Virus record (IMG/VR): IMGVR_UViG_3300012352_000355
Location: 32,001 to 96,000 of that record
Reading direction: 5' to 3' (one strand)
DNA: 64,000 bases
From: a virus
The notes beneath the pieces are model-generated. The model ran no database searches, was not told where the DNA came from, and saw nothing but the letters and a program-made list of their open reading frames with translations. Shown here in pieces: positions 30,910 through 56,240 of this stretch (positions are counted from its first letter, which is position 1; each line of letters starts with the position of its first letter). The position numbers and the translations under genes were made by a program.

Positions 30910-31478
30910 AACAGATGATAAAACGTAAAGACGGATCTTACTCACAAAGAGGATTGTGGGATAACATCCGTGCTAAAAGAGGTTCTGGAAAGAAACCTAC
31001 TCCAGAGATGCTTAAGCAAGAACGTAAGATTAAACGTAACATGGCTGAAGGCGGTAAAATGCCTACCAGTGTTGCTAAGGCTAGATTTGTAGCAGCTAAC
31101 AAAGGAAATGTATCTGAGGCTAGACAAGACGCTTCTAAATACGGATACAAGTTTATGGTTGGTGGTAGACTTAAAGCAGCTTATATGGCTAAGGGTGGAA
31201 CTATTGCTAAGACAACTAAAGGCCCAGGTGCTAACTATCGTCCTACCAAGCAAGGTGCTGGTATGACTAAGAAGGGAGTTATGGCTTATCGTAGAGCTAA
31301 CCCAGGTTCTAAGTTAAGCACTGCTGTTACAGGTAAGGTAAAGCCAGGTAGCAAAGCAGCTGGTCGTAGAAAGTCCTACTGTGCTCGTTCATTAGGTCAA
31401 TTGCGTAGATCCTCACAAGCTACACAGAATGATCCTAATAGCAGAATCAGACAAGCACGTAGGCGTTGGAAGTGTTAA
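30906..31478 (+). CDS. Highly basic protein with DUF6321-like C-terminus
   Basis: GMTKKGV.AYRRANPGSKL..AVTG...RRKSYCARS...DPNSRI.QARRRWKC. Confidence 0.7.
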   Translation: MKQMIKRKDGSYSQRGLWDNIRAKRGSGKKPTPEMLKQERKIKRNMAEGGKMPTSVAKARFVAANKGNVSEARQDASKYGYKFMVGGRLKAAYMAKGGTIAKTTKGPGANYRPTKQGAGMTKKGVMAYRRANPGSKLSTAVTGKVKPGSKAAGRRKSYCARSLGQLRRSSQATQNDPNSRIRQARRRWKC

Positions 31479-38900: not shown

Positions 38901-41900
38901 TATGCTAAAGCAAACAAAGATCATATAAACTCAGACCTCTACACTACAGTAACTGAGAATCTTGCTGACAGTAACAAGAGAGCACAAGAAGCCATCGCTA
39001 TAGCAGAACCTGAAGTACGTACTCAAGTACTTACAAACTTCTTAGACAAGGCAGTAGCTTTTAAGACTAATTACGCATATAACGTTGATCTAGTAAACAA
39101 AATATTTCCATTAGTAGAATATACCCAAGAGGAGTTAGATCAGGCAAGAGAAGCGCTTATACAGAGAAGGGCTCAAAAGAAATCTCAACAGATACTAGAT
39201 ACACAAGTAGTAGAAGGAGGAGAGACAGAGAAAGAAGAACAAGCGGAATTTAGTAATATTGCTAATCAAGTTGCAAGTACTCCTGAAGTAGTGAGTGAGT
39301 CAGGAGAGTCTAATAGAGACGAGATGTATCTTGCTGGTTATAATCGTATGATTGACAGAGCAAAGGCTAGTCCTCTAGGATTTGCTAAGGCATTTGAGTT
39401 AGCAGTTAAGAACAGGTTGTCTTCAGTGTTTACTCAAAATACTAAAGACTACAATACTTTAATTAATGCATTAGATGATCTCTTAGATAAAAAGATTACT
39501 CCAGAAGAATTTAGAAATATTTACTTAAATGTTTGGAGAGAGAACAAAGGAAACGAGAATAAACAAAATGCAGTTATATTCCTTAAGTTTATTGCAGATA
39601 GGTATTTCCTTAACGACATGCCTGCAGATAGAGTAAGTAGTAGAACTACTCCCACTGCACCTATCACTCCAACTCCTGCTCCAGTTACTCCTAGTCCTGC
39701 TAAAACAACAACTAGTAAAAATGCCCCTACTCCTAAGCAAGGAACCAAGGTAGATAAACTAAACAACGAAGTAACTCAACAAGTACAAGCAAGACTTACC
39801 CAACTAGAATCCTTGGCTTCTCCATTAAGAACAGTTGCAGTAGAATACAATGCAGCTAATCAGAAGTCAACAGATCCTGCTACACTACGTAATGTAGCTT
39901 TAATAGAATACATAGCTACTACTCCAGGTGTAAGAATGAGAGTAATGAATAGAAAGTTGTTTCTCCTTAATCATATTGTAGAAAACAACGAAACTATTAA
40001 CACAGAAGCAGAAGCTTTAGTTGAGTTTAACAAGATTGCTGATCATATCTCAGAAAACAATATGTCTTTAGATACTTGGAATAGTTTATCTGATGAAGAT
40101 CTAGACTTGTTATTAGCTCCATTAGATCTCATTCTAGGTAAAAATTTCTTTGACAAAGGCAACTTAAGATTCTTCTTTACTTCTGTAGATGCAAAGTTTA
40201 AAGGAGGTAAAGTATATCCAGTAGGTACAGGTTTGTTTGTCGATCCTCAAGTTATTATCACAGCAGTAGACGAAGATGGAAATACTATATTGAAAGATGG
40301 ATTGCCACTCGAATTAAACTTTCCTAGGATAGAAGCACAGGGTTTTAGAATTAGCGAAAGAGTAGAAAATGATTACGAAGAGTTAGGAGGAGATAAAGAA
40401 AACCTAAGAAGTAAAAACCAAGCTAACTACGAAAGGATGTTGGCTATGACTAAGCTAATTAAAGCTGCAAACTCTTTTGCTGATACTTTACCTAGTCTAG
40501 ACTTCGATCACAGTGTATCTTCTGGTGTAATGCTTGAAGCTCCTATAACTAGCTACAAGGTTGGTAATGAGGTAGAGGTAGATAATGTACAGAAAGCAGG
40601 TATCGCAGAATTTAAAATTGCAGAGGATCCTAGGGAACCTATATTTGGTAAAAACTATTCTTTCCGTAAAGGTCGTGTTTATTTTAATAACAACGGTAAT
40701 CCTACCTTGTTAACAAACAACAAGATAGATCCACAAGAAGCAGATGCTCTTGCTGACTTGTATTTCTCGGAGGAGAATCCATACTTCAGTAGTCCTAAAG
40801 AGGCAGAAGAATATTTGTTTAACTTGATTAACCAAGTAAATAAGAAAGATCGTTTACACTTCTTTGTGAATGAGGAGTATCCTGGTCCAGGTCAGTTCCC
40901 TGTAATCATTGTAAAATCTACAGGTACTGCTACAGGCTTTAAAAATGAAGTGCTAACAAAAGAAGAATTTGCTAAGGAATTAAAGAATCATTACTACAAA
41001 GCAAGTTTAGCTCTAATGAGAAGTGGAGAACCTATTATGAGATTTAAACCCTCTGGCATGGTTACTCAGTCTTATTCACAGTATATAAAAGACACTCATA
41101 ACTTCCCAATTCAAGACGGTCAAGTAGCTATGCCAGTAAACAAGGTAATCTACTTAGCTCCAGAATCTTTAGAAAAGCAGTTTCCTGAAATTACAGGAAC
41201 AGCTCCTAAAGCTCCTGAGGTACCAAAAACTCCTACGCCTTCACCTACTGCGCCTAAACCTAGTATGGTAGTAGCAGGAGTACAGAATAAAGTTAAGAAC
41301 CTTTCTATACTTCCCTTTGATAGAGCATTATCTGCGGCACAGAAAAGTCCAGGTGCTGACTACTTAGTTGATCCTATGCAAAAAGTAGGAGAAGAGTTCT
41401 ATAACATAGCACTAAACACTGTTCTAGCTGATCCTACTAAACTTACTGATATCTACTATTTTAAGTTGGTAAGAGAACCAGGAGTACCAGCTGTTAGTAT
41501 TGAGAGAAGGAAATATGATCCTGAAGATGCTGATGCTGTTTACGCTTCACACTTTTTAGGCAGAGTCAACGTAGAAGGTAGAGAAAAACCTGTTACAGTT
41601 ATTCTTGTTGATCCTAATGTTCCTTTTGGAAAGACTTATGGTACCCCAAGAATAATGGCTACTATAGATCTTGCCAATCCTCAGGAAGCTGTTATTCAAA
41701 CCTATCAGCAGTTTACTAATCCTGCACCTGTACCTACTCCAGCACCTGTTACTCCTGCTCCTACTAAACGTTCTATGAGTGCTTTAAATGCTATGCGTGT
41801 AGGTGAAGTTGAGAAAGTAGAACAAGCAAGCGATTCTCCCTTCAGTGATGCTTTGTTAGACGAAGATGAGTTGAGAGCACAAGCAAAAGAATCTAAAGAG

Positions 41901-41933
41901 GCTTGTAAAGGAGACTTAGACGATTTAGCTTAA
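35955..41933 (+). CDS. Giant virion ejection protein (1992 aa) with hydrophobic Gly/Ala-rich region
   Basis: Size and gene order; GAMVAQMIPIIAGGALV and EALEEE motifs; Pro/Thr linkers. Confidence 0.75.
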   Translation: MPNKYQANLGPLSKSLAGAAPGDMRERFNTLIPLDVQNSFQQKAELAVLEQDRLDQQKGLQEQRNLKLNSLKSLYRQAMPNPQFADRAASSVFDRIENASSKQELNDIYSEIESIREKAQDNSFLFDGLETVVGLAQGLSSFGESFFRGKESLIDQKKKTLTQANADLTDISGSIIPQDLFSQGIAAIKEAEFTNYGKQTINQFGSPKGLYDALSKARMGTKAAYNNFDDFVKPRLEDAFATKGHYLYREGEEAPQFQQEARTAFANPTKDQTAANFKHDLEKESLSSVKSAIMGDLQKELLKPRDAVDYNPDNIKYLRNSLSIVDQRLNSLDQVYKVDKYASDAEKTLFGEGSSARRSVIKAFGDTLPGKLIQDKLFNASDFSQAVFSEAFYKPDIITYDKDNRPVMSNQFMYTKADGSRAFNWGSIPEAGGAMVAQMIPIIAGGALVEGVVSGVAAAELGAISSGAAGISRAYDALNKVSALGNELKLADRAATFASVAANTIPHFVEQEKRWGGDYVKRGLAGGIVEATAEAIGFPDVGALKMRPVTTTLASSAMRAAKLELNFGQRLGSYLNNTYQFAKLGAKQNAVEALEEEISLLGNAIVQNGIMPEEYALRDKEQVTAKSLTDTLVESFAAGLIYSFGTVGAGGYAYTRPENLQRQSNWEAANNPELFIAKLQDLKDKGKISDQDFVQGIAKVRTLEGTMKSLVGFDNIRDLKTLNLDKDEQFALFTNVLRRNELLEIDLDSMSDTEKEAFANYKAGNILAEESRKRQRLIRKQLAEFDRNPEPTKEEQKERERLTELYAKLKRGDIQYINKGSISEEDKKYFYEAGLLTDTDLQVSQEDIDKEIDSINKSILKTQKRIDRYANLTNSEKNEIIRKVYDEKIEAVLKVDSAADLVESRINLQKDLDYLRLKGEEEVPGQVEHKERLLDAYGKQMNDLVNERDEFGQNKVEQKVSNFDANTLEQAGDLFGIQEAYEYAKANKDHINSDLYTTVTENLADSNKRAQEAIAIAEPEVRTQVLTNFLDKAVAFKTNYAYNVDLVNKIFPLVEYTQEELDQAREALIQRRAQKKSQQILDTQVVEGGETEKEEQAEFSNIANQVASTPEVVSESGESNRDEMYLAGYNRMIDRAKASPLGFAKAFELAVKNRLSSVFTQNTKDYNTLINALDDLLDKKITPEEFRNIYLNVWRENKGNENKQNAVIFLKFIADRYFLNDMPADRVSSRTTPTAPITPTPAPVTPSPAKTTTSKNAPTPKQGTKVDKLNNEVTQQVQARLTQLESLASPLRTVAVEYNAANQKSTDPATLRNVALIEYIATTPGVRMRVMNRKLFLLNHIVENNETINTEAEALVEFNKIADHISENNMSLDTWNSLSDEDLDLLLAPLDLILGKNFFDKGNLRFFFTSVDAKFKGGKVYPVGTGLFVDPQVIITAVDEDGNTILKDGLPLELNFPRIEAQGFRISERVENDYEELGGDKENLRSKNQANYERMLAMTKLIKAANSFADTLPSLDFDHSVSSGVMLEAPITSYKVGNEVEVDNVQKAGIAEFKIAEDPREPIFGKNYSFRKGRVYFNNNGNPTLLTNNKIDPQEADALADLYFSEENPYFSSPKEAEEYLFNLINQVNKKDRLHFFVNEEYPGPGQFPVIIVKSTGTATGFKNEVLTKEEFAKELKNHYYKASLALMRSGEPIMRFKPSGMVTQSYSQYIKDTHNFPIQDGQVAMPVNKVIYLAPESLEKQFPEITGTAPKAPEVPKTPTPSPTAPKPSMVVAGVQNKVKNLSILPFDRALSAAQKSPGADYLVDPMQKVGEEFYNIALNTVLADPTKLTDIYYFKLVREPGVPAVSIERRKYDPEDADAVYASHFLGRVNVEGREKPVTVILVDPNVPFGKTYGTPRIMATIDLANPQEAVIQTYQQFTNPAPVPTPAPVTPAPTKRSMSALNAMRVGEVEKVEQASDSPFSDALLDEDELRAQAKESKEACKGDLDDLA

Positions 41934-41963
41934 CATAATTGAAGCATACTTTCAATAACGTAT

Positions 41964-41971
41964 TATATTTG
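41964..41971 (+). promoter_or_regulatory. -7 promoter element TATATTTG upstream of the RNAP gene
   Basis: Consensus -7 element; TTG at 41939-41941 (22-nt spacer). Confidence 0.55.
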
Positions 41972-42018
41972 TAATACACCCAGTAAACATTAATCTATAG
42001 TATTAACTAACATAAGAA

Positions 42019-45000
42019 ATGATTTGTCCAAATTTAAGTGATAATAAAGTACGTGCGGAGTTCACAAACCTTACTAATCTTGTAGGAGAAGACTTCGCTT
42101 ACTTTGTATGGAATAGGAATGGTGGCTATCCTCTAGACAAGAAGGTAGTTACAGTAAAGGGGAAAGAAACAGTAATTGATAATCCTTTATACAATCATTT
42201 CTTAGGCTCTTACAATAACGTAAAGCAAGCAACTCTTGCTACTAGTATTTATTACAGTAAGAAGTTACAGAAGAGTAATCCTGGATTTGATAATCTTCCT
42301 ATACAAGAACAGGCAAACATTATCCATGACTTTGTACAAGAGAATGAAACTTTAGAAAAAGCTTCTGAAAGAGTAATGAGATTCATTGCTCAAGGATTTA
42401 AAGCAGAACGTGTATTAGATGAATCTATTAGAAGAGTAGCCTTTGACGAAGCACGTAAGATAGCTAACGGAAGACAATTACTTGACTCTTATGTTTGGTT
42501 TAAGACTTCGCCTCTTTCTTTGTTTGTAGATTTTGCAAACATGCAGAACAAGGAGGAAAGTTCTTTTGCTACTTGGACTAAGTCAGCAATTACTTTATAC
42601 AAAGGATCTGATTACTCAGACCTTTATCACGAAGGTTGGCACGAATTTACACAGCGATTCATGACTAAGGAACAAAGAATTGCTTTGTACCAGTCAGTTA
42701 AATCAAGACCATCTACTGCTCTTATTAATGGTGTTCAAGTTCCTTACTATGCTTTGACTAGTCGTCAAATAGAAGAAGTACTTGCAGAAGAGTTTAGGTC
42801 TTTTTCTTTGAATAAGTCTAATCCTGAAGTAGTTGTTCCTAGAATAGAAGCTCCTGTAAGAAACTTGTTTCAAAAGATCTGGGATTTCTTAACAAGTATA
42901 TTTAATGCTTCACCTCAAGAGATTGCTTCTAGACCTGCAGAAGAAGTACAAGACGGTATAACTGCTTTGTTTGAAAAACTCTACGCAGGTAAAATATATG
43001 AGTACACGCCTAGTGTCACTAACATTAGTGAGAAAGTATTAAATAGAAACAAATCTTTTCAGATTAACTATGTAGCTAAAGACGGAAGAACAATTCCATT
43101 TGAGTATAATGCTTTAGAAGCTGCAGAGATCTTTAGTGCTATTGACTTCTTCCTAAGTAAGGCAATGGATGACTTTAAGACAAGTGATGGTACTAAGATT
43201 AAGTTAGAAATGTCTTTCTTGTTGAACAAAGATCTTAAGCAAGTATACTTGCCTCAACTATATGAAAGTGCTAGAAACTCTATGTTGCAGTATATCAGTG
43301 CATTAGAGGAAGAAGCAACTACTGCTGACGAGGCTACTGCAGAAGTACTTAAGCTACGTGTTAAAAACTTAAAAGGATTAGTAGTAAGAACTGCAGCAAA
43401 CGATGGTTGGGCTACTGTAGTAGAGAATCATCAGAGAGCATCTAAGGGTGGAGTATTTTACTTAGAAGAGAATAAGAAGTCTTACGATGTAGACAACCGA
43501 ATAGATGATCAAGATGAATCAGAGTTAAGGAGGGACAGTAGAAGTTTTGCTAACGCAGAAGACGTAGACCCTATGTCTCTAGCTTCTCCTGAGATTCTCC
43601 AGTTAATTAAGATTCTTCCTGGAACATACTATAACTCTTTAGGAGAAATGGTTACTGCTACAGGTCCTTCATTTGGATTACCTCAGTCAGGTGATTTCTT
43701 AAGAAATAAAAACTTAGTCTTAAGTAAAGTAAGTGGGTCAATTTCTTACGAAGAGGCTATACAAAGATTAGAGAATACATTAGATATTGCTCCTCAGTTA
43801 AGACAATTAATTGATAGACTTCCCCCTACTGATACTTCTTTAAGTCTTTCTCAGCTCGCACTTAAATCTCAGTTTATGCAGTTTGCTGCAATGCCTACGG
43901 TATATCCTTACGAGATCAAATCTTTGGTGCAAAATGAATTGTCTGCTGTAACTAAGAAGAAAGAAAAACGTCTGGAAACAAAAGCATTCTTAAACAATAC
44001 TCTTTCTCAAGACAAACTAATAGAGTTCTTTGATCAAGACTTTGTAAGTAATAGACTACGTAAGTATAGATTAATAGATCCTAAAGAAATAGATCTAGCA
44101 GTTTATGATAGGGCTAGTGTACTATCCGACTATAGAGCTTACACAGAGAATGGATTCACTTCTGATCAAGTTGCTTTTGAATTCTTAAATGATGCCTTTG
44201 GTATCAACTTAATTGCAGACAAGAATCCTAACTTATTGTTTAATAAGCGTGGAGAATTACAGTTAGGAGTTAATCCTATCTTTACTACTACAAACCTAAG
44301 AAACCTTGTCAAGATAGCTAACAATGCTTTGTTTAAGCTGAAGCTTCTTAGCCTTATAGATTCTTCTGGGGAAAATCTTAACACCCCTACCATCTCTTAT
44401 AATCCACTACTTGCTCTTTCTTCTGATATATCTAAACAGTTGAAAGAACAGATTAAAGAACTTAAGTCGGGAGAGAAGAACAAAGTAATTAAAGAGTACT
44501 TTGAAAAACATTTTAAGGCAGCTACTCTCGACAATGAAAGAACTTCTGCTTTTTCTACTATAGAAAAACTTTATAATATCTCTAACTCTGCTTCTTACTT
44601 AAACCCAGAAGGAAACTTAGAGTACGCAGTAAGAGAGTGGAATCACTTGTTAGACTCAGCATCTAAGATTAATAATGTAAAAAACATCTACGAACTAGAA
44701 GGACACTTAAACCCAGAGTCTAATAACTTCCTTGAGTATAGTTTAGTTATGAATGCTATGTTCCGTAAAGACGATGGAACTAGAAGGACTACTAACTCAG
44801 GTGAAGGAGTATACTTAGAGGTTTTAAACATGTCAGGTTTTACTATTGGTAAAACTAGAGGAGATAAAACAACTAACTTATCTGGTGACGGAAAACTCTT
44901 ACAAGACTTCCTTTCCTTTATTCAAGACGCTACCATAGAAAACATGAGGGTAGGAGCAAAGTCTAGTTCTTTTGCTACACGTTTGTCTGGAAACAGAGGA

Positions 45001-48000
45001 GAAAGGGAATATTTTAAATATGATCAGTATCAGTTCAAGAATCAAGCTGTAGTATCTTCTGACTTTATCAGACAGATGCAGAACTACTTGAACTTTGAGG
45101 CTATGCGTATGTTTGACGACAGAGCTAAATCTACGAGAAAAGAAAAAGCTGGATCTGAGTTTATCATACTAGACACTATACTTCCACAAGACATTAAAGA
45201 TAAAGTAAAGGAAGCAGTTAATGAGGCTCCTAACAAAGAGGCTCTTAAGTTGACTCTTAGGGGTATGTTTGGTTTGAGTGCTAATAGTCTCTATGGTCCA
45301 TTTAAAGATGCTGTTACAGCATACTTTAAGAGTTCTGCTGATGTATTGAAAGTTTCTTTTAATGAAATCTTAAGTAAGGGAGAGTCTAAGAATCTTGCAA
45401 AAGAATTTTATCGTATCCACAAAAAGCAAGATGGGACTGCCTATACACCAGAAGAGATAGATTCTGTTCTTCTTTACTTTACTACTAATTATTTTGCTCA
45501 CCAAGTAGAAGTAATGCACTTGTTAATCGGTGATCCTTCTAATTATAAGATTAAAAATAATGAATGGAGAGAAGCATTCAAACGTCTTGGTCCTGCAATT
45601 TCTCCAGGTAAACAACCTAGATTAGACCTACAAGACACTAACTCTTGGAATACAGATCCATCTCTTAGTAGAGGACTTGAAGAAGTACAAAGAGGAAAAG
45701 GAAAAGGTAGACCCTATGATACTAATTTAAACTACGTACAGTATGAGGATATCAAAACCTTTGAGTATTTAGATGAAGTTGCTAAGTCTTCTATCAAAGA
45801 AAGTATTAGACAAAACTATTTAGATGCTTTGATAGCAGCTAAGGGTCCTTTGAGTCCAGAGGAACTTGCAAGAGAGTCTGCTCAAATAGATTCAAATACT
45901 GATGCAGTACTAGTACAAGACGAAGAAGCGAATGCTCAGGCTTACGCAGGCTTAGACTTTATAAGATACTACTTAAATTCTATTGGAGAATGGCTTCCAG
46001 AACTAGAAGAAGCTTATAAACATGAGGTAAAGGTATTACAGGCAATTAAAAACTATAGACAATCTAACTCTACTGAAGATCTTGCTAAAGTAAAAGAGTT
46101 GGTTAGACAGAGTAATCTTGGAATACTGACTTCACTTAAACTAGGATACTATGGATCACCTACAGACTACAACAAGTACAATGTACTAGGTAAGTATTCT
46201 GTGTTCCCATTAAGTCCTTCTATGGTATTTGATACAGACTTAGAGAATCTTATGTTTGACTACCTAGACAAAGGAGTAGACATGTCTACTTTCTCTAGTG
46301 GTAATAAGATGTCTCTTCCTGTAAACGAAATGGCTTTTTATAATTCTGTTGAGTTGAATGGTAAAAAGATTCCAGTACCTAATGCAAATGGAGCTTTAGA
46401 AGTAACTAAGGTAGATCCTAATCTTATTGTAAGACTTCCAATAGACGGTCTCCGTAGACAACAGTATATTGCTCCTAAATTTAAGGGAGAAGCAACTTTG
46501 TCTACTCAGATGGTTAAGTTAATTTTCTCTAACTTTTTTGTATCAGGTAAGATTAACCCTAAGTATGCACACATTCAAGATAAGATAGAAGCTTTACAAG
46601 AGGCGTTTATTAATAACATTAAAACTATTGTAGAGGTAGAGAAAGCAAAAATCTATTCTAAGATTGGAGCAACTGTTAACGCAGAAGGAAAATTAACTAG
46701 CATTAACACAAAAGACTTTACTAACTGGTTACATAGAGAGTTTGATAAGAAGGAAGTACCTAGTTCTGTCTATGACTTTATTAGACCTTCTAATAACAAT
46801 CAGTTTGTATTTTCATTGGATGCAGGAGTACAAAGATCTCTCATAGACCAAATCATCTCTAGTGCTTTGTCTAAGCGTGTATTGAAACCTAAGATGTTTG
46901 GTGAGGCTTATATTCAATTGGCTTCTTCAGGATTTAACAAACTAGGTACTCGTAAACAAAAGCCTACTGTTGATGAGATCAAGACTATATCAAAAGAATT
47001 CAATGTAAGCGGTTTAAGAGACTATCGCATTGAGGATGGTGTAACTCAACCTGCTGATGTTTTGATTCCATTTAACGCAAAGAAACATGCTCCCTTGCTT
47101 AATTTAGTTTGGAACGGAGAAGTTATCGGAACACTAGATAGACTTAATGACGCACTAGATGATCCTCAGTGGGTTAAGACACACTCAGCTAAGATAACTC
47201 TTGTAGGTGTACGTATTCCTGTACAAGGATTAAACTCTATGGAGTACTTTAGAGTACGTAGATTCTTAGCAACTGTAGGTGGTCCTGTAATGGTTGTACC
47301 TCCTTCAATCGTAACTAAGTCTGGATCTGACTTTGACATAGATAAATTGTTTATGTACGAGCCTGAACTTGATGAGAATGGAGAGTTAATAGTTAACGCT
47401 GAACTAGCAAGTGCAGAATACAGAGCTAAGATTATTGAAAACATCCTAGACAAAAACACTTACTTAAAAGGTAAGGCACTTTTTCTAGATAACTTGTTTG
47501 ATTCAGAAAGCTTTAGGGAAGCAGGCTTAGTATCTAAAGAGATTGATTCTATTAAGAAAATGATCTCTGATCTAAAGGGTATTAAGACTTCTGGAGAAGA
47601 AGACGACATAGCTTACTTTAAAGAGAACATAGGTCCTTTGAACATGAAGTTAGGTATTGCTATTGAAAGATTTAAAACTTTACGTAACCAAGATCCTAAT
47701 GTTGTTCAGTTTCTAGAAAACTTAGCACAGTACAAAGAAGTTCTTTCTGAGATGGAAAACATTTCAGAGAAACTGATAAAGGGTTCAGCTTCTAACAATA
47801 TGATCTCGGTAATATCTGGTGTATTGTCTGAAGCTTCTATTTACTCAGAGTTTACAAAACCCAACGTTAATAAGATTCTTCCTGAGATTGCTAGAGAGTA
47901 TCAAGCACTGAAGGGCAGAGATAGTAAGATTGACTCTAGTGCAATGTTCTTGATTGAGACTTCAATAAGAATCTTTACAGAAAACAACTTGGGTAAGAAG

Positions 48001-50394
48001 TCTTTAGGTGTAGATGCAAAGACAAACGCTTTACATAAATTGTTCCAACAAGTAGGTTTAAGATTTGCTTCTAATCCACAGAATATAGACATTAATTCTT
48101 TCTACCTACTTAAGTCAAACAAGAATCCTGACACAGGTGAGATTGAGTTGGGGGGTCTTTACGATGCTGATGGAGTTAACTTAATCTCTGATGTAATCAA
48201 CGAGTTTATTAATGGTCACGTAGATATCGAGAAGGAAGACTGGATTAACTTCTTTAACGCTGATAGAGAACGTACTCCTTTAATTCTTCAAATGGTACTT
48301 AACGGTACTCCTGTAAAGGACGCTATCTTACTAGTAAACCAACCTATCATTCAACACTATATTAGATCTAGTAAGATTACTAAAGTAGGAAAAGCATTGG
48401 GTCAAAAGTCAGCAAGCTTATTTAAAGACTATATTACCCCTGCAATGAATTACTTAGACATTACTCCAGTAACTGTAGATGGTATAGTAGACGAGGCTGC
48501 TACTGTAGAAAAAGTACTTAGCATGCCTTCTATCAATAAGGCATTGTCTGCAGAAAACTTTAACAAAGAAAACTTTGCTCCTAATCCTTACGTAAGACGA
48601 TTTGCTTATGATAAAATTAAAGCAAATAGAAATACTCCTGAAGGTCAATCTGCACTAGAAGCTCAGTTAGCATTTGCTGCTCAGTATTATGTTGTTAAAG
48701 AACAGAATAAAGTCTTGTTAGAGTTAACTAGTAATATTGACTTTAACACTTCTTCATACCGTATCAACACAGAGTTTTATGCAACTACTCAAAACATTAA
48801 AGTAGCTGCTCCTAACTTTGCAGCTGAAGGGTTTAACAGAATACTAGAATCAAGTGTAGTAGCTCCTTTTAATATTCTTGAGGACACTGAAAAGCTTATT
48901 GACCAGGTTTGGGACTTCTTCTCTATAGAGGAGATTAAAGAACACCTATACAACGTTAAACAATCTTACGGTAAATACTGGGGTAGAGATGAATCTGTTA
49001 CCAATTACAATCAGTTGGTTAACTCTTTTATGTTGTCTTTTATTCAGAACATTCCAAGCCTTAAGTCTTTTCAAGATAACTATGGTATTAGTTCTGGCTT
49101 ATTTGATTTAAAATCTGCTAATAACTTAAGAACTAGATTCGATAAACTGTTTTCAAGTACAGAAGACAAGACTCTTAAGAGATTTGCCGAGAACAACTTA
49201 ATCTTAAACAACTTTAGTCCTATAAGTATACCTGATAGTAATTATTTCTATCCTGGTATGATTACAAATGAAAAGGACGTAGATACAGTTAATGCTGCTC
49301 AAAAAGCTTTCTCTGATGGTTTGAATCATCCTAACCCAGAAGTATCTAAGTTCTTTAGGGACTTAGCTAATGGTGTACTTGTATCTCAAGGTTTTAATAT
49401 TAAGTATCGCTCAATCCAAAACTTTATTCCTTTAGAGGCAAAGAGCGACTTAATGATAGAGTTGTCTATTGCTCTTAAGAAAATTAAGATAGGCTTAAGT
49501 AAGCCAGTAGAAGAGATGACAGAAAAAGACAGTGAGGACGCTATGGCATTTATGAGTTTGCTTGAAAGTACTACCTCTATGCATGCTAATCTTTATTGGC
49601 CTTCTAAGGATAACGATTTCATTCCTACTGCTTATATGAAAGCCTTTCCTAACTTTAAAGAAGAGGAAGCAAAGGCTGTTACTACTGAGAAGAAAAACTC
49701 AAGAGTAACAAACCAAGATGACTTGGACGAAGCAAAACTTTATGCTCAGCAGTTTGACAATGATATTCCTTCTATGGATGAACTAGACGAAGAACAATTA
49801 ATAACTAGGAGACTAATAGCTAAAGGCAAAACTGTTCCTGCTAAAACTCCTGCAACTTCTGTATCTACTAATGTTAATCCTGCAAGTAATAAGATAAACA
49901 TCTATGCAGGAGGTAAAGGAGAGAATGCTGAGTTAAGTAATTTTGCAGTAAGGCCTTTTTCTGAAACTTGGGATCTTTCACCACTAGGTATGGACTCGGA
50001 AACGTTAACTTTTAATACGGTAGAGGGAGCATTCCAGGCTACTAAGATTTTGTATAGTACCGATCTAAAAAATTATGATTTGTTACCACAGTTTCAAAAA
50101 TTATCTGGAGCACAAGCAAAAGCATTAGGTCAAAAAATTAAAGGATTGGATACAGAAGCATGGGATTCAAACTCTTCTGTAGTAATGAAAGATTTAATTA
50201 AAAAGTCTTTTGAACAAAATCCAGATGCTCTTGCTAAACTTATTGCCACAGGTAATGCCACCCTTACTCACACACAAGCTAAACGTAAGTGGGCTAAAGA
50301 ATTTCCTAGAATCCTGATGGAAGTAAGGGCTGAGTTAAGAGACAATAACCTAGAAGGATTTGATTTTGAAGTAACTAAGTGTATCGTAGATTGA
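42019..50394 (+). CDS. Virion RNA polymerase (crAss-like, two-barrel) with N-terminal zincin-like motif and C-terminal NADAR domain
   Basis: RIPVQG..S and GSDFDIDKL catalytic motifs (about 47210-47350); HEGWH...EEVLAEEF; C-terminal LSNF...TVEGAFQATK...M..LI..SFEQNP.....L..TG. Confidence 0.92.
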   Translation: MICPNLSDNKVRAEFTNLTNLVGEDFAYFVWNRNGGYPLDKKVVTVKGKETVIDNPLYNHFLGSYNNVKQATLATSIYYSKKLQKSNPGFDNLPIQEQANIIHDFVQENETLEKASERVMRFIAQGFKAERVLDESIRRVAFDEARKIANGRQLLDSYVWFKTSPLSLFVDFANMQNKEESSFATWTKSAITLYKGSDYSDLYHEGWHEFTQRFMTKEQRIALYQSVKSRPSTALINGVQVPYYALTSRQIEEVLAEEFRSFSLNKSNPEVVVPRIEAPVRNLFQKIWDFLTSIFNASPQEIASRPAEEVQDGITALFEKLYAGKIYEYTPSVTNISEKVLNRNKSFQINYVAKDGRTIPFEYNALEAAEIFSAIDFFLSKAMDDFKTSDGTKIKLEMSFLLNKDLKQVYLPQLYESARNSMLQYISALEEEATTADEATAEVLKLRVKNLKGLVVRTAANDGWATVVENHQRASKGGVFYLEENKKSYDVDNRIDDQDESELRRDSRSFANAEDVDPMSLASPEILQLIKILPGTYYNSLGEMVTATGPSFGLPQSGDFLRNKNLVLSKVSGSISYEEAIQRLENTLDIAPQLRQLIDRLPPTDTSLSLSQLALKSQFMQFAAMPTVYPYEIKSLVQNELSAVTKKKEKRLETKAFLNNTLSQDKLIEFFDQDFVSNRLRKYRLIDPKEIDLAVYDRASVLSDYRAYTENGFTSDQVAFEFLNDAFGINLIADKNPNLLFNKRGELQLGVNPIFTTTNLRNLVKIANNALFKLKLLSLIDSSGENLNTPTISYNPLLALSSDISKQLKEQIKELKSGEKNKVIKEYFEKHFKAATLDNERTSAFSTIEKLYNISNSASYLNPEGNLEYAVREWNHLLDSASKINNVKNIYELEGHLNPESNNFLEYSLVMNAMFRKDDGTRRTTNSGEGVYLEVLNMSGFTIGKTRGDKTTNLSGDGKLLQDFLSFIQDATIENMRVGAKSSSFATRLSGNRGEREYFKYDQYQFKNQAVVSSDFIRQMQNYLNFEAMRMFDDRAKSTRKEKAGSEFIILDTILPQDIKDKVKEAVNEAPNKEALKLTLRGMFGLSANSLYGPFKDAVTAYFKSSADVLKVSFNEILSKGESKNLAKEFYRIHKKQDGTAYTPEEIDSVLLYFTTNYFAHQVEVMHLLIGDPSNYKIKNNEWREAFKRLGPAISPGKQPRLDLQDTNSWNTDPSLSRGLEEVQRGKGKGRPYDTNLNYVQYEDIKTFEYLDEVAKSSIKESIRQNYLDALIAAKGPLSPEELARESAQIDSNTDAVLVQDEEANAQAYAGLDFIRYYLNSIGEWLPELEEAYKHEVKVLQAIKNYRQSNSTEDLAKVKELVRQSNLGILTSLKLGYYGSPTDYNKYNVLGKYSVFPLSPSMVFDTDLENLMFDYLDKGVDMSTFSSGNKMSLPVNEMAFYNSVELNGKKIPVPNANGALEVTKVDPNLIVRLPIDGLRRQQYIAPKFKGEATLSTQMVKLIFSNFFVSGKINPKYAHIQDKIEALQEAFINNIKTIVEVEKAKIYSKIGATVNAEGKLTSINTKDFTNWLHREFDKKEVPSSVYDFIRPSNNNQFVFSLDAGVQRSLIDQIISSALSKRVLKPKMFGEAYIQLASSGFNKLGTRKQKPTVDEIKTISKEFNVSGLRDYRIEDGVTQPADVLIPFNAKKHAPLLNLVWNGEVIGTLDRLNDALDDPQWVKTHSAKITLVGVRIPVQGLNSMEYFRVRRFLATVGGPVMVVPPSIVTKSGSDFDIDKLFMYEPELDENGELIVNAELASAEYRAKIIENILDKNTYLKGKALFLDNLFDSESFREAGLVSKEIDSIKKMISDLKGIKTSGEEDDIAYFKENIGPLNMKLGIAIERFKTLRNQDPNVVQFLENLAQYKEVLSEMENISEKLIKGSASNNMISVISGVLSEASIYSEFTKPNVNKILPEIAREYQALKGRDSKIDSSAMFLIETSIRIFTENNLGKKSLGVDAKTNALHKLFQQVGLRFASNPQNIDINSFYLLKSNKNPDTGEIELGGLYDADGVNLISDVINEFINGHVDIEKEDWINFFNADRERTPLILQMVLNGTPVKDAILLVNQPIIQHYIRSSKITKVGKALGQKSASLFKDYITPAMNYLDITPVTVDGIVDEAATVEKVLSMPSINKALSAENFNKENFAPNPYVRRFAYDKIKANRNTPEGQSALEAQLAFAAQYYVVKEQNKVLLELTSNIDFNTSSYRINTEFYATTQNIKVAAPNFAAEGFNRILESSVVAPFNILEDTEKLIDQVWDFFSIEEIKEHLYNVKQSYGKYWGRDESVTNYNQLVNSFMLSFIQNIPSLKSFQDNYGISSGLFDLKSANNLRTRFDKLFSSTEDKTLKRFAENNLILNNFSPISIPDSNYFYPGMITNEKDVDTVNAAQKAFSDGLNHPNPEVSKFFRDLANGVLVSQGFNIKYRSIQNFIPLEAKSDLMIELSIALKKIKIGLSKPVEEMTEKDSEDAMAFMSLLESTTSMHANLYWPSKDNDFIPTAYMKAFPNFKEEEAKAVTTEKKNSRVTNQDDLDEAKLYAQQFDNDIPSMDELDEEQLITRRLIAKGKTVPAKTPATSVSTNVNPASNKINIYAGGKGENAELSNFAVRPFSETWDLSPLGMDSETLTFNTVEGAFQATKILYSTDLKNYDLLPQFQKLSGAQAKALGQKIKGLDTEAWDSNSSVVMKDLIKKSFEQNPDALAKLIATGNATLTHTQAKRKWAKEFPRILMEVRAELRDNNLEGFDFEVTKCIVD

Positions 50395-50403
50395 TAATAC
50401 ACT

Positions 50404-50411
50404 TATATTTG
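50404..50411 (+). promoter_or_regulatory. -7 promoter element TATATTTG upstream of the third giant gene
   Basis: Consensus -7 element; no clear -33 element. Confidence 0.45.
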
Positions 50412-50441
50412 TATTAGTTAAAATAAAAAAAGTAAACAAAG

Positions 50442-53400
50442 ATGCCAAACGGTTGTGTAATAAAATATCCTAATCCCGTAACTGGGATGAATCAAACTTC
50501 AGTACTTGCCTACACTCTTTCTCAAATGGGGTACAGCACTGAAGAATCGATAAACTTAGTCAAAAGAGGCAGTACCTATTCTAAGAAGAATGGGTACAAT
50601 GCCTGGCCTAAGCCTATTAACAGACCTGAAGCACGCTTTGGTAACTTTATAGAAATAGACTCAGACAATCTTGTAGCTAATTTAGGACTAGACTCTGTAC
50701 TTAAACCTTCACAGGTTAGTTATATGAGAGCTGCTCAAGATTTGTTTGAAGATGTACAGGTAAGGGTGGATGCTCCTATTAACTTAAAACTGTTAATGGA
50801 ATTAGGAAACTATGTTAAGAAAGGAGGAGAAGCTTCTCTTAAGATAGAAGTAGTTAATCCTGAAGCACCATTAATACAAAGGATGTATAAAGTATATCCT
50901 GTTCCTGCTACTCCACTTAACCGTGAGTATTTATTTAGTTTCATTGAGACAGAAATATTTAGCAAGAACGTATCTATTGGAAAAGAAACAAGACTTGATT
51001 TCTTAAAGCCTTATATAGATTTCTCAGAGCCTGATATCTATGATACAATGGCTAAAATGCTAAACGATTCTCAGACACCTGCATACGAAAAGTATTTGAT
51101 TAAGAAACTACTTCCTATGATGGACTTAGTTCCGAGTATTACTTTTGACTTCTTTACAGGCTCAGACATTCTTCAGGTAGAAAAAATTCCTGCAGGACAA
51201 TACAATAGAGAGTTTAATAATATAAAATTAAACGTATTTGGACTTAAGAATGGGGATATGTCTAGTGCTAGGAGACTTATTCTACACGAAGTACTTCACT
51301 CTGTACTTTCTTCTGCTATTGACAATCCTATTAGCGAGGTAGACAAGAAACTAGTCAATTCTTTAAAGCCAGTATTAGCTTATTACAGGCAGAAATATTC
51401 TAGCGAAAAGTTTACAAATGAGTATTACGGTTTACAAGATTTACATGAGTTCGTATCTGAGTTCTTTACTAATCCTGAGTTTAGAGACTTACTAGAGTCT
51501 AACGATAGTAACTGGTTCTTAAAGACAATTGATGCTATCTGGAAATTCTTTACAGGCAAACTTCTATTAAACAAGAACGTAAATACTGTAGAGAACATAG
51601 AACAAATTCTAGAAGATATCTTTAACGATATTATATACTCTCAAGAAATCAATACGTCTCTTACCTATACTAATACTTCGAAGTTTGAATCTCCTCTAAG
51701 CTTCAATCAAATGCTTGAGATAGATAAGTTTACTGAGAACAACTCTGAACTTTTATCTGAATTCTCGGCTAACCTAGATAGATTACTAGCAGAAGATAAC
51801 TTGCTTAACTGGTCTAAGATTATAGATCAAGCAGAGTTCTTAGGAGTAAACGTAAATAGTGTACTAAGAACAAAAGATACTTTCGTAGAGATATCTCCTG
51901 CTGAAGCAAAAGAATCATTTAAATCTATGGTTACATTCTTCCACGAGACTGCTAAGTATCTAAGAAGTATACGTAACTCTCTTGATAAGTTAGCTGCAGA
52001 TCCTAACATAACAGCTGACCAAGTATTCAGACAGGCTTATCATGCTAAGGAACTAGGAGAACAATACATAAACTTTGTAGAGAAGTACAGAGAAGTAATG
52101 GGTAACATAGGTATAGATACTATCCTAGGAATCCAACTTCTTAATATAAAAAGTACTGCAGACTCTTTAAAGGAAGCGTACTTGAATAATGCAACTGAGG
52201 CTTTGGCTATTAAATTAGCAGATGAGTTTGCTCCACAAACTAAAGATGCTCAGAAACGTATCCAAGAAAACATTGAAAGATTTAAAGTTAGTTTGGCGAG
52301 TGCACAAAGCCTAGGTAACGCTAAACTTATAAAGCTTACTGAAGATAGAATCAAGAACGAAGAGGCTCGCTTACAGAGTCTTGCTACAAAGTCTAATATC
52401 ATTACTGCTCTTAAGGGACAGATTAAAGACATAGGTAACTTCTCTTTATTCTTAGAGTCAGCAGGTCTCTCAGGAAACGTAATTACTGGTACAGTAGGTG
52501 GTATGATTGCTAACCAATTTGATTCTGCTAATGTTAAAGCACAATCTATGGAGGTTAAACTTAAAAGATTAGCTGATGAGTTACAAAACCACTTGAAGAG
52601 TAAGGGTGTAGGAGTAAACACTTCTTTTGATTTTGAGAATGTTTTCGGAAGATTTCTTAAGAAAACTGAAGTAGTTGAAATGAAGAATGGTAAGATTGCT
52701 AAGAGAGACACTCTAGTCCTACTTAGTGAGATGGATGAGGTTCGCTACAACAACGACTTGATTAAACTAAAACAAGAATTAAGAGATCTCAAACAAACTA
52801 AAGTACAAGACTCTGCCGTAAAAGATCTTATTAAAGCTAAGGAAGCACAGATAAGAAACTTTAAACAACAGTACGAAGAACAGCCTTACCAAGAAGTCTA
52901 TTACCAAATCCAGAATATGTTAAGCTCAGAAGCAAGAGAAGCTAGAGACTTAATACTTCAAGAGATGGATAAGATTCAAGTAGGTAGTTTGAATGAAGAG
53001 AACTCTGAAGAACAGTTAGATAAACTAGAAGATCTCAAAGAAGATTTAGATCGTTTGGAGTCTGATTACGATAAAAACAAAAACTTAAAAGACGAAGAAG
53101 GTTTAAGAATCGCAGCTAATATAAGAGAGTGGAAGAGGAGTAGGACTGCTGCTCAACTCTACACCTACAATATCACTAAAGAAAATCAGGAACTCTTTGA
53201 TAGCCAACTTATTGCTAAGAAGAACGCTTACGATAAAGCTGTATCAGACTACGAACAGTCTTTGTCTGAGAAAGCAGATCCAGAAACTCTAGATTATAAA
53301 AAACAAACTGCAGAGTATTATAGAAAACAGTTTGAACTTTGGAAAGCTAACAACTGTGTTAGGAAGATTAGTCCAGAATTCTACAAAAATAGAAAGCAAA

Positions 53401-56240
53401 TAACTGATTCTATTGCTGCTATTCAGGGTAGATACCCTCTCCCTGACGGTGTACGTAAGATGGATGTGGTATGGGGAGAATTGTTTGACGTACTTAAAGG
53501 CTATAAAAATAGTGATAACTTTTATGAAGGCTCTAAGATTTCTTCTCCTAACGAAGACGGAACCCCTTCTAACATCTCTGCCATTGTAAGAAGCCTAGAA
53601 GAAGAGATTGAAGATATTAAAACAGTCTACAAGAAAGAGAACAAGATGTCTAAGGAAGATCAAGACGCTCTTACAGGGTTGTTTGCAAGCTTCTCAGATA
53701 TTCAAGAGAAGGTTTATACTCCAGACTATATAAAAGAATATACAAGTCGCTTAAACGCTGTTAAAACAAGTCTTATAGCAAAAGACTCTACAAGATACCA
53801 AGATCAATCAGACGACTCACTTCTTAAACTTGATGCCGAGAAAGAACTTAGAAAGACAGAATGGTACAAACAAAACCACAAGAAAGTAAGTGTATGGGAC
53901 TCAGTAAACTCTATTTGGACAAATACTGATGAGCCTTTGTACTTCTGGACTGCTACTGAACCTACTGATAAGACTTTAATTAGCGACACTTCTCCTTCTT
54001 TTAGATGGAATACAATCGCAGTTAATCCTATCTATGTAAGACCAGAGATCAAGAATGTAAGATATAGTAAGCGTGTTCCTTTGCGTACAGATAAAACAGA
54101 TTACAGAAACAAAGAGTACGACAAACTAGATACCAAAGAAAAAGAAATCTTAAAGAAAGTAACTGATATCTACTTAGAACTACAGAGTGGTACTCCTATG
54201 AATCTTAAAAAAGGATTAGAGTTACCTAGTGTAGTAATGGATGCTACTGAAAGATCTCTTAAAGGAACAAACTTGGGTACACTTAAGTCTAAGATATCTT
54301 CTACAGCACAATCTATCTGGGACAAAGCAACCTTTGAGGATGACGAAGAGGTACAAAGAGATACTGCTGGAACAGTTATGCAAAAGGTAAATAGAAAACT
54401 TTACTTAAAGTATAATAGACCTATCCCTGCAGATAAGATGAGCTTAAACATATTCAATAGCATTGCTATGTATGGAGCAGATCTTATTAGATTCAAAGAA
54501 GCTTATGCAGTAGTTCCTTACATCTATGGTATTCAAGACGTATTAAATAAGTCTATGCCTGGAAGTAAGATTGAAAAGATGATTAGCAACTTGTTTGAAC
54601 GTAAGTTACAGGGTAAGAGTCGTAAGTTTATAGTTAATAATAAAGCAGGAAGACTTGTAGAGAAAGTAGTAGATACAGCTTTAGCAGCTAACTCACCTAT
54701 TACTTTGGCTTTCCGACTTCCTTCAAGTGTAAAGAACTTTATGGCAGGTTCTGCTAACGTATTTATTCAAGCAGAAATGTATGGTTTGAGTCGTAAGGAA
54801 ATCTTTAAAGCTATGGGTAAGAACTCTGTGCACATAGCAGACTTGTTTCAGTCAGAAGTAGAGGATGGTAGGGACTCTGAGTACATCTCAAAGATGCGTT
54901 ACTTTAACGTAATGCCTGACGATCAACTTTCAGAAACAGGTAGAAAAGTATTTATATCTAAGCTAGGCAAATACCGTAAGTACAATCCTTTTAACTTCCT
55001 TGCGTTCTTTAGAACATTTGGAGAATTTGAAATGAGAAGTGCAGTAGCCGAGGCCCTTTCTGAAAAATTTCTTATACCTCTTACAGATAAACCTAACGGA
55101 GTACCATTGTTTGAGGCTTACGACTTTAAGGATGGAGTGCTTGTTCCTAAAGAAAGTATTATTGATAAAGAAGGTTTTGAGAAAATAGAACAATACTACA
55201 GAGGAAAACTTAACTTTATTAATGCAGCTATACAAGGTGCTTACGGATCTTTAGATAGAGGAGAGTATTCAAGATATACATTAGGTCGTATTATTGGTAA
55301 CATGAAAGGGTGGGTTGCTTACCAAGGTATGAGAAGATTTAAAACGAGTAGAAGTATTAATCCTAGATCAGGAGAAGAATTCCAAGGATTCTACACTACT
55401 GCTATACAGGCAATTAAACTTCTTTATCAAACAAACTTCTCTCTTCCTGCAACTAAAAACCTAATGACTCCTCAAGAGAGAGCAGAGGTAGAAGGTGCAG
55501 CCATAGATATGTTAGTACTGGCTGTGATTATGGGAGTATCCGCTATTCTTAATAGTATAAGATACGATGATGAGGACGAAGAGGATATGTATATTGTATA
55601 TTTCTTTCTTTACAACTTGTTGTTGATTGAAGATGAATTAAACAGTTTGAACCCTGTATTTAGTCCTTTGTCTATCTATCATTCTAGATTTGAGAATAAT
55701 GTAGATGGACAGAATTTTGCTCAATACTACTTGAACAGAAACGTTCTTCTTCCTTTTGCAGGAGCTACAGATGCACTTAAGTTAACTATGGAAATGGTTA
55801 ATCCATTTGATGATGTAAGTCCTTTTGATGAGTACGTACCTCGTAGTAAGAGTGGTAAAATTTCCAACCCAAAGAGATACCCACCAGATCCCACACTTAA
55901 AGGAGATACAGAAATTTCAGCAAGAATACAAAAACTATTTGGATTGAATGCTTCTATCAACTTCTTTTTAAATCCTGAATACCTATTTAGAAAGTATGAG
56001 AAATATAATCCTAAGTGGTACGTAAGTAGTCTGGATGCAGATTTAAAATCAGAAAAAAGATCTATCAATTCTATAGACAAACAAATTAAATCTATAGAAA
56101 GACAATATGACTACATAGATGATCCTGATACTAGACAGAGTCTTATGAATAAAGTAAGCGACTTAGAGAGGCAGAAAGAAGAATCAGGAGAAAGACAATC
56201 TAGTTTAACAGAAATATATTCAGAGACTGGGAGGAGGTAA
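50442..56240 (+). CDS. Giant virion ejection protein (1932 aa) with zincin-like metallopeptidase motif
   Basis: ILHEVLHS...YYGLQDLHEFVSEFFTNPEF; long coiled coils; hydrophobic C-terminal helices. Confidence 0.78.
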   Translation: MPNGCVIKYPNPVTGMNQTSVLAYTLSQMGYSTEESINLVKRGSTYSKKNGYNAWPKPINRPEARFGNFIEIDSDNLVANLGLDSVLKPSQVSYMRAAQDLFEDVQVRVDAPINLKLLMELGNYVKKGGEASLKIEVVNPEAPLIQRMYKVYPVPATPLNREYLFSFIETEIFSKNVSIGKETRLDFLKPYIDFSEPDIYDTMAKMLNDSQTPAYEKYLIKKLLPMMDLVPSITFDFFTGSDILQVEKIPAGQYNREFNNIKLNVFGLKNGDMSSARRLILHEVLHSVLSSAIDNPISEVDKKLVNSLKPVLAYYRQKYSSEKFTNEYYGLQDLHEFVSEFFTNPEFRDLLESNDSNWFLKTIDAIWKFFTGKLLLNKNVNTVENIEQILEDIFNDIIYSQEINTSLTYTNTSKFESPLSFNQMLEIDKFTENNSELLSEFSANLDRLLAEDNLLNWSKIIDQAEFLGVNVNSVLRTKDTFVEISPAEAKESFKSMVTFFHETAKYLRSIRNSLDKLAADPNITADQVFRQAYHAKELGEQYINFVEKYREVMGNIGIDTILGIQLLNIKSTADSLKEAYLNNATEALAIKLADEFAPQTKDAQKRIQENIERFKVSLASAQSLGNAKLIKLTEDRIKNEEARLQSLATKSNIITALKGQIKDIGNFSLFLESAGLSGNVITGTVGGMIANQFDSANVKAQSMEVKLKRLADELQNHLKSKGVGVNTSFDFENVFGRFLKKTEVVEMKNGKIAKRDTLVLLSEMDEVRYNNDLIKLKQELRDLKQTKVQDSAVKDLIKAKEAQIRNFKQQYEEQPYQEVYYQIQNMLSSEAREARDLILQEMDKIQVGSLNEENSEEQLDKLEDLKEDLDRLESDYDKNKNLKDEEGLRIAANIREWKRSRTAAQLYTYNITKENQELFDSQLIAKKNAYDKAVSDYEQSLSEKADPETLDYKKQTAEYYRKQFELWKANNCVRKISPEFYKNRKQITDSIAAIQGRYPLPDGVRKMDVVWGELFDVLKGYKNSDNFYEGSKISSPNEDGTPSNISAIVRSLEEEIEDIKTVYKKENKMSKEDQDALTGLFASFSDIQEKVYTPDYIKEYTSRLNAVKTSLIAKDSTRYQDQSDDSLLKLDAEKELRKTEWYKQNHKKVSVWDSVNSIWTNTDEPLYFWTATEPTDKTLISDTSPSFRWNTIAVNPIYVRPEIKNVRYSKRVPLRTDKTDYRNKEYDKLDTKEKEILKKVTDIYLELQSGTPMNLKKGLELPSVVMDATERSLKGTNLGTLKSKISSTAQSIWDKATFEDDEEVQRDTAGTVMQKVNRKLYLKYNRPIPADKMSLNIFNSIAMYGADLIRFKEAYAVVPYIYGIQDVLNKSMPGSKIEKMISNLFERKLQGKSRKFIVNNKAGRLVEKVVDTALAANSPITLAFRLPSSVKNFMAGSANVFIQAEMYGLSRKEIFKAMGKNSVHIADLFQSEVEDGRDSEYISKMRYFNVMPDDQLSETGRKVFISKLGKYRKYNPFNFLAFFRTFGEFEMRSAVAEALSEKFLIPLTDKPNGVPLFEAYDFKDGVLVPKESIIDKEGFEKIEQYYRGKLNFINAAIQGAYGSLDRGEYSRYTLGRIIGNMKGWVAYQGMRRFKTSRSINPRSGEEFQGFYTTAIQAIKLLYQTNFSLPATKNLMTPQERAEVEGAAIDMLVLAVIMGVSAILNSIRYDDEDEEDMYIVYFFLYNLLLIEDELNSLNPVFSPLSIYHSRFENNVDGQNFAQYYLNRNVLLPFAGATDALKLTMEMVNPFDDVSPFDEYVPRSKSGKISNPKRYPPDPTLKGDTEISARIQKLFGLNASINFFLNPEYLFRKYEKYNPKWYVSSLDADLKSEKRSINSIDKQIKSIERQYDYIDDPDTRQSLMNKVSDLERQKEESGERQSSLTEIYSETGRR

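Follow-up and report, generated by a model that had tools for sequence, protein, structure and literature searches.

The DNA analysed in this study is a 64,000-nucleotide stretch, referred to here as the window, which corresponds to positions 32,001 to 96,000 of the 111-kb IMG/VR virus record IMGVR_UViG_3300012352_000355 and has gene content in common with the Crassvirales. Our subject is a block of three giant genes in this window, encoding the proteins that we call A, B and C, and the placement of the very few cysteines (Cys) in them, four of the five of which lie at the protein ends facing the A|B and B|C junctions. The genes and their Cys codons are listed below, with lengths in amino acids (aa).

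35955..41933, plus strand: protein A, 1992 aa, proposed first link of a chain, with a single Cys near its C-terminus
41904..41906, plus strand: codon of A Cys1984, in the tail ..EACKGDLDDLA, 9 residues from the end
42019..50394, plus strand: protein B, 2791 aa, predicted virion RNA polymerase and proposed middle link, with Cys3 and Cys2788 only
42025..42027, plus strand: codon of B Cys3, in the cap MICPNLSD
50380..50382, plus strand: codon of B Cys2788, in the tail ..FEVTKCIVD, 4 residues from the end
50442..56240, plus strand: protein C, 1932 aa, proposed last link, with Cys5 and Cys972
50454..50456, plus strand: codon of C Cys5, in the head MPNGCVIKY
53355..53357, plus strand: codon of C Cys972, internal

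Placement of cysteines in the window

The Cys positions and lengths of A, B and C, together with the absence of Cys from two open reading frames (ORFs) of 823 and 570 aa, had been read from the translations in an earlier note on this DNA, and we reproduced every number. Its statement that four of the five Cys sit at junction-facing termini while the two outer ends have none is likewise exact. With the Cys counts fixed and their positions taken as uniform, the probability that the four junction-facing 10-residue ends are occupied as observed is 1.3e-9. The remaining ORFs of the window contain 12.1 Cys per 1000 residues, a rate from which about 81 Cys would be expected in the 6715 residues of A, B and C, against the 5 observed, and the depletion of internal Cys is approximately 150-fold. 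The fifth Cys, Cys972 of C, is restricted to the closest clade and is not kept beyond relatives of at least 74% identity; judged by this distribution, it is probably outside the terminal-Cys system.

Conservation of the terminal cysteines

The earlier note had named a census of Cys across Crassvirales among the ways to check its idea, and this census showed the termini to be conserved and paired at each junction. In the 12 close IMG/VR loci (99% or about 70% identity) all four terminal Cys are kept, the consensus tails and heads being ..ACKGDLDD[IL]A for A, MICPNLSD.. and ..FEVTKC[IR][VE]D for B, and M[PS][NK]GCVIKY for C; the length of B ranges from 2791 to 4093 aa in these loci because its C-terminal modules differ. 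The A tail ACKGDLDD[IL]A is kept in relatives of 64-98% identity.

A database search gave 120 homologues of B, from 99 down to 22% identity, of which 100 were left after the exclusion of 14 fragments and 6 fusions. All of these full-length, unfused proteins have a Cys at residue 3-7 and 99 have one within the last 10 residues, while 83 have no further Cys at all; internal Cys occur at 0.08 per 1000. Where the N-terminal Cys is missing, the homologue is a truncated gene call, a fragment or an A-B fusion. In an alignment of 17 B sequences reaching down to 30% identity, the columns of C3, P4 and C2788 are invariant. In all 24 homologues of A there is a Cys near the C-terminus, at a distance of 9 to 27 residues, and 23 of them have no other. 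For C, a Cys at residue 3-8 was present in all 22 homologues from a word search and in 57 of 62 from a full HMMER search, and it is mostly the only one in the protein. Along the whole chain, then, the Cys of the upstream partner lies within the last 1 to 27 residues and that of the downstream partner at residue 3 to 8, and the outer chain ends of the homologues are without Cys. Proteins outside the crAss-like phages that share only the zincin domain of this system have 0 Cys.

The same A/B/C pattern was carried by 27 of 27 loci of a very distant clade, drawn from a related-locus search with the B homologue P0069. The sole seeming exception of that clade, L039, is explained by a frame break after an N-terminal piece that begins MACNS... 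A start-codon artefact was rejected as the origin of the N-terminal Cys because the N-terminal peptides are conserved at the protein level, and a lipoprotein signal was rejected because there is no signal peptide. Some C homologues (P0181, P0182, P0187, P0194, P0196, P0202, P0193 and P0210) have an extra pair of Cys spaced 8-12 residues apart, approximately 160-260 residues ahead of the C-terminus, which may form a disulfide within the protein or make up half of a metal site.

Cultured phages

The rule is followed by five cultured phages, phi14:2, crAss001, p-crAssphage, crAss002 and Fpv1. In phi14:2 the last residue of A is itself a Cys, C contains Cys3 and no other, and the RNA polymerase carries Cys3 together with one 2 residues from the end. 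The phi14:2 ends concerned read ..NTIC for the tail of gp078, MACK.. and ..QECK for the head and tail of gp077, and MSCK.. for the head of gp076. Among the crAss001 proteins, the only Cys of gp47 (A) is found 3 residues from the end (..RCNS) and that of gp49 (C) at residue 5 (..KKC..), and gp50 (B) contains three: Cys5 (..KRC..), one internal and one 9 residues from the end (..KICGAN..). The gene for crAss001 gp47 is on the strand opposite to the B and C genes and its terminal Cys is still kept, which indicates that gene adjacency is unnecessary and that the order in question is that of the protein chain. The earlier note had proposed a chain in gene order, and it is the protein order, not the gene order, that survives this observation.

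The annotated start of crAss002 gp33 (L048, 11088-23825) is probably 32 codons too far upstream; the start is probably Met33, since the sequence from there, MSCTPSNP.., matches both the N-terminal Cys rule and the MSCGN.. of p-crAssphage. Two upstream proteins in the cargo block of Intestiviridae also end close to a sole Cys, namely p-crAssphage gp47 (L046, 1588-4161; 2 residues from the C-terminus) and crAss002 gp30 (L048, 393-2066; 8 residues from the C-terminus). In that family the chain, or another link, may extend further upstream; the 823-aa ORF of the window has no Cys. In p-crAssphage (L046), a thioredoxin and a truncated thioredoxin are encoded near the cargo block, at 26978-27256 and 27976-28245.

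In cr131_1 (L044, NC_055902.1, 9199-33400), gp50 has 27 internal Cys, all past residue 1554. The polymerase of this phage is split into gp50 and gp48 by gp49, a 242-aa ORF that is possibly a mobile insert, and its late genes read through many table-11 stops, from which we conclude that it uses a recoded stop. The Cys pair is still present, in the gp48 tail ..YCKGGN and the gp47 head MAPFCPNLS.

Gene fusions, an additional split and a moving cut

The fate of the terminal Cys when the genes are fused or split bears directly on what they pair with. In P0065, P0076, P0069 and P0095 the N-terminal parts match A by blastp whereas those of unfused control B proteins do not, so these are A-B fusions, and Fpv1 gp33 (4401 aa; a single Cys, 2 residues from the end) is a further one. 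None of the five has a Cys near the A-B joint, and the C-terminal Cys is kept in all of them. For P0070 and P0118 the position of the B-like part suggests an A-B fusion, and as their N-terminal parts have no blastp match to A we leave them as unconfirmed. The B-C fusions p-crAssphage gp44 and crAss002 gp33 keep Cys3 (in crAss002 counted from Met33), and have neither a C-terminal Cys nor a pair of Cys at the joint.

The loci L005 and L006 have an additional cut. Here B ends in ..NNC and is followed by a separate 328-aa ORF with an ART-PolyVal domain and then by C, which starts MSKGC (Cys5). The intervening ORF starts MICPN.. and ends ..FEVIKCRED, and its only two Cys are Cys3 and one 4 residues from the end. 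The cut can also move, as the zincin domain is at the end of A in crAss001 and p-crAssphage and at the start of B in the window, with a Cys pair at the cut each time. Terminal Cys always come as two at each junction, which gives totals of 2, 4 or 6, a count that fits pairwise bonds.

Protein B and the surrounding genes

Protein B contains the following recognisable features.

42628..42642, plus strand: HEGWH zincin-like motif, B residues 204-208
47329..47343, plus strand: DFDID catalytic motif of two-barrel RNA polymerases, B residues 1771-1775
49921..50283, plus strand: NADAR domain, B residues 2635-2755 (Pfam PF08719, 44.1 bits against a cut-off of 35.1)

On sequence grounds, B is a crAss-like virion two-barrel RNA polymerase of the phi14:2 gp66 family. 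The DFDID at residue 1771, an instance of the DFDxD motif described previously (bioRxiv 10.1101/2020.03.07.982082), is within the block SGSDFDIDKLFMYEP, which is invariant in the alignment. By blastp, B matches crAss001 gp50 (E 1e-11) and phi14:2 gp077 (E 4e-7), both across the catalytic region, and by tblastn it matches RNA polymerase genes of Crassvirales. C matches phi14:2 gp076 and crAss001 gp49 by blastp. No chain among PDB sequences was matched by A, B or C with phmmer at E<=0.01, a megablast of the region against phage records gave no match, and PHROGs and Pfam gave no family for A or C. Packaging and injection of the polymerase are known for phi14:2 and crAss001 (bioRxiv 10.1101/2020.03.07.982082; PMC10172136), and homology and gene position suggest that B is likewise packaged in the virion and injected.

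The zincin region of B (residues 182-273) matches crAss001 gp47 residues 2135-2216 by blastp (E 5e-4), so that its crAss001 counterpart is at the C-terminal end of A (gp47 residue 2157). The NADAR domain is a variable C-terminal effector module ahead of the conserved Cys tail. This part of B is a zone of effector-module swaps, with NADAR in the window and other modules in L004, L007, L011 and L012; such modules lengthen B to 3124-4093 aa in relatives, and the last approximately 20 residues with the Cys tail are unchanged across the swaps. In L005 and L006 the place of the swap zone is taken by the stand-alone ART-PolyVal ADP-ribosyltransferase (L005, 18541-19527).

The A|B gap of 85 nucleotides and the B|C gap of 47 nucleotides both hold TATATTTG (window 41964-41971 and 50404-50411, plus strand), a sequence that we take to fit the Bacteroidota -7 promoter element TAnnTTTG. 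As the element is approximately 30-50 nucleotides 5' of each ATG, each giant gene may have its own promoter.

Two cargo-like ORFs precede A.

31759..34230, plus strand: cargo-like ORF, 823 aa, 0 Cys; synteny with crAss001 gp45 judged from position and size only
34234..35946, plus strand: cargo-like ORF, 570 aa, 0 Cys; in the position of crAss001 gp46

Neither gave a match by blastp. Upstream of them, a 190-aa ORF with a C-terminal DUF6321 (window 30906-31478, plus strand) has a Cys as its last residue (..RRRWKC) and a further one at residue 159. Any partner of this Cys is located elsewhere, as the adjoining downstream 823-aa ORF has none, and the protein may be involved in structural disulfides like those known from the crAss001 tail. 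A 1683-aa ORF 5' of the cargo block (window 23839-28890, plus strand) contains 26 Cys, 19 of them within residues 53-281, which fits a disulfide-rich structural (tail) protein and contrasts sharply with the Cys-free cargo proteins.

A proposed tethered cargo chain and alternative explanations

Our results suggest that a single modular cargo polyprotein could underlie A, B and C, with the cuts between its pieces placed differently in different crAss-like phages, and we consider it fairly probable that pairwise tethers, probably disulfides, rejoin the split polyprotein in the order A-B-C. In the assembled particle, the two Cys at each cut would form an intermolecular disulfide, which would turn the three proteins into one covalent, nearly linear thread of approximately 6700 residues that is packaged whole and could pass through the tail unfolded, piece after piece. 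Internal Cys would be selected against, because wrong cross-links or knots would block the passage. The overhangs beyond the Cys are short (2-8 residues in this clade), so the joint would be nearly as slim as a peptide bond and suited to unfolded passage through the tail. The matched head-to-tail partners A-B and B-C on which the earlier note had built its C-to-N concatenation are strongly supported by the conservation, the fusions, the L005 split and the structure of phage A4 discussed below. The pairs would most likely be disulfides rather than metal bridges or another thiol link. The cargo may be packaged stoichiometrically, as the earlier note had proposed, and may exit in the order of the chain, and reduction in the host cytoplasm may separate its pieces, although release by reduction is probably not essential because the fused forms cannot be released in this way.

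An obvious alternative is that each matched pair bridges a metal ion such as Zn, with additional His, Asp or Glu ligands, in which case the proteins would still be tethered end to end. The pairing logic would be equally satisfied, acidic residues are common beside the C-terminal Cys (EDPFKC, DFESxC, ACKGDLDD), and such a site could form in a reducing cytoplasm. We give this explanation a small chance, as there is one Cys per partner with no conserved second ligand visible, the surroundings of the Cys vary freely, and the identical signature in phage A4 has been mapped as a disulfide. A single Zn(Cys)4 or Fe-S cluster made from all four ends is excluded, since the count falls to 2 Cys in the fusions and rises to 6 in the L005 split. 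Split inteins and protein trans-splicing were rejected on other grounds: the Cys are 1-9 residues from the ends in this clade, which leaves no room for intein halves of approximately 35-100 residues, and Pfam found no intein domain. It could also be that the terminal Cys attach the cargo to the portal, the inner capsid, other cargo or a second copy of the same protein, or that they are joined in another topology, such as A with C or B circularised, without any A-B-C chain. The cargo proteins are not resolved in the crAss001 structure, and other virion proteins end in Cys too (the 190-aa ORF, p-crAssphage gp47, crAss002 gp30). We regard such arrangements as improbable, however, because the C-terminal Cys of A and the N-terminal Cys of B are jointly absent in A-B fusions, the C-terminal Cys of B is missing from B-C fusions, the extra split in L005 brings a new matched pair with it and the outer chain ends never have a Cys; an anchor to another partner predicts none of these patterns.

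The Cys might instead have no linking role and belong to a processing or recognition signal or a packaging tag, the facing layout being a by-product of shared cap and tail modules. An N-terminal cap motif of approximately 40 residues (CPN..., W-N) is indeed common to B, to C of other clades and to the ART module, and residues 2-40 of B are 64% identical to residues 4-42 of cr131_1 gp47, which suggests a folded or recognised module. Distant clades, however, keep the Cys alone (MACALN.., MFCESK.., MNACSIK..) with the cap motif gone, and the almost complete elimination of Cys elsewhere is better explained by thiol chemistry than by a motif, so that this explanation too appears unlikely. Chance or an annotation artefact has next to no probability in our view: it would have been a fair suspicion for a few Cys in one genome, but it is already refuted by the placement probability of about 1e-9 in the window and by the recurrence of the pattern in hundreds of independent sequences and in the five cultured phages.

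Several observations weigh against the favoured explanation, the rejoining of A, B and C by pairwise disulfide tethers. Gut phages inhabit an anoxic environment, and the cytoplasm in which the proteins are synthesised and assembled is reducing. A search of this genome for thioredoxin gave no match; one for an Erv thiol oxidase was silent too, but as it was equally silent in its control genomes it is uninformative. Suppression of Cys is not universal, given the 27 internal Cys of the A-B protein of cr131_1 (Suoliviridae), and p-crAssphage and crAss002 retain a lone Cys near their fused B-C joint. The terminal bond has been directly observed in no crAss-like phage, and the crAss001 structure paper, which compared reduced and unreduced virions by mass spectrometry, did not report the termini of gp47, gp49 and gp50 (PMC10172136). 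From sequence data, a disulfide looks no different from a metal bridge or another thiol link, and other pairings (A with C, or B closed on itself) are excluded only weakly. A complex prediction for residues 1873-1992 of the window's own A with residues 1-420 of its B returned a score of 0.07, which speaks neither for nor against the tether. On the other side, virion proteins of Crassvirales do become oxidised, as the many structural disulfides of crAss001 virions indicate, and the A4-type signature corresponds to a known disulfide in one solved virion, according to the gp27-gp26 map.

Implications

Crassvirales are the most abundant phages of the human gut, and how they pack and inject approximately 0.7 MDa of polymerase-associated protein is an open question for which the Cys rule supplies a concrete hypothesis. 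The rule would explain why the genes can be freely fused or split, and it would account for the extreme avoidance of Cys better than passage through the periplasm alone. It would also define injected effectors among the small neighbouring ORFs, and it provides a simple annotation mark for the true ends of giant genes, such as the start of crAss002 gp33.

A more general form, a 'cysteine-tip code', is tentative and to our minds possible rather than probable. Any protein with an N-terminal Cys cap and a C-terminal Cys tail would be disulfide-spliced into the cargo thread, delivered in fixed order and released when the reducing host cytoplasm dismantles the thread. If this were true, effector modules (ADP-ribosyltransferase, NADAR and others) could be added, dropped or swapped as separate genes without re-engineering of packaging or ejection, and the phages would possess a natural plug-and-play protein-delivery chain of up to approximately 1 MDa.

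Comparison with known systems

A close parallel is found in the cyanopodophage A4 (Anabaena phage A-4L), in which cryo-electron microscopy of the pre-ejectosome revealed a disulfide between Cys1715 of the ejection protein gp27 and Cys5 of gp26, with the C-terminal helix of gp27 docked in gp26 (PNAS 2025, PMC12002296). In the A-4L genome the two genes are adjacent, the sole Cys of gp27 (1717 aa) is 3 residues from the end and the sole Cys of gp26 (1114 aa) is at residue 5. The likeness to the window is thus that the only Cys of the upstream protein is near its C-terminus and that of the downstream protein is within the first few residues. In A4, a single bond joins two proteins within a T7-like core stack, no polymerase takes part, and the bond was not presented as a general rule or a chain. 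In contrast, the crAss-like rule links three or more proteins, holds throughout a phage order and changes in step with the fusion and fission of genes. The resemblance is one of working and not of family membership, since no homology was detected among PDB chains at E<=0.01. The earlier note had not been aware of any description of such an arrangement. For Crassvirales this agrees with our literature search, in which we did not find the terminal-Cys rule described, but the A4 gp27-gp26 disulfide is a published precedent.

The ejected proteins of N4-like phages (N4 gp50 and DEV gp71/72/73), which comprise giant virion RNA polymerases and their companions, are almost free of Cys, which has been ascribed to their unfolded passage through the envelope (PMC11445570). 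The strong suppression of internal Cys is shared with the crAss-like proteins, where it amounts to 0.08 per 1000 in B homologues vs 12.1 in the other ORFs of the window. The difference is that N4-like proteins have essentially zero Cys, whereas crAss-like proteins keep one at each junction-facing end (99 of 100 B homologues and every A homologue). Moreover, the N4 polymerase is a single T7-like protein and not a three-protein chain. A likeness also exists to the polyvalent proteins of phages and conjugative elements (ART-PolyVal, NADAR, zincin), which are giant injected proteins that string together exchangeable effector domains. Their modules are joined by peptide bonds, while some modules of the crAss-like cargo are separate ORFs with a Cys at both tips.

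Within the crAss-like phages, a polymerase and two companions are known as phi14:2 gp65/gp66/gp67 and crAss001 gp47/gp50/gp49, fused into a 'polyprotein' in some phages (bioRxiv 10.1101/2020.03.07.982082; PMC10172136), and A of the window occupies the position of crAss001 gp47 and phi14:2 gp65. According to the crAss001 atlas, the virion contains gp45, gp46, gp47, gp49 and gp50, and its tail and portal vertex hold many structural disulfides; the termini of the giant proteins are not discussed there (PMC10172136). For a 2026 paper on N4, how the three crAss proteins relate to one another is still an open matter. The phi14:2 preprint described the fused forms as 'likely cleaved' and did not mention Cys (bioRxiv 10.1101/2020.03.07.982082). 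The published view is one of cleavage of the fused forms, whereas ours is one of covalent joining of the split forms. What is new here is the proposed extension of the A4-type head-to-tail disulfide to an order-wide chain of several proteins that includes the polymerase, an idea that our observations support in part.

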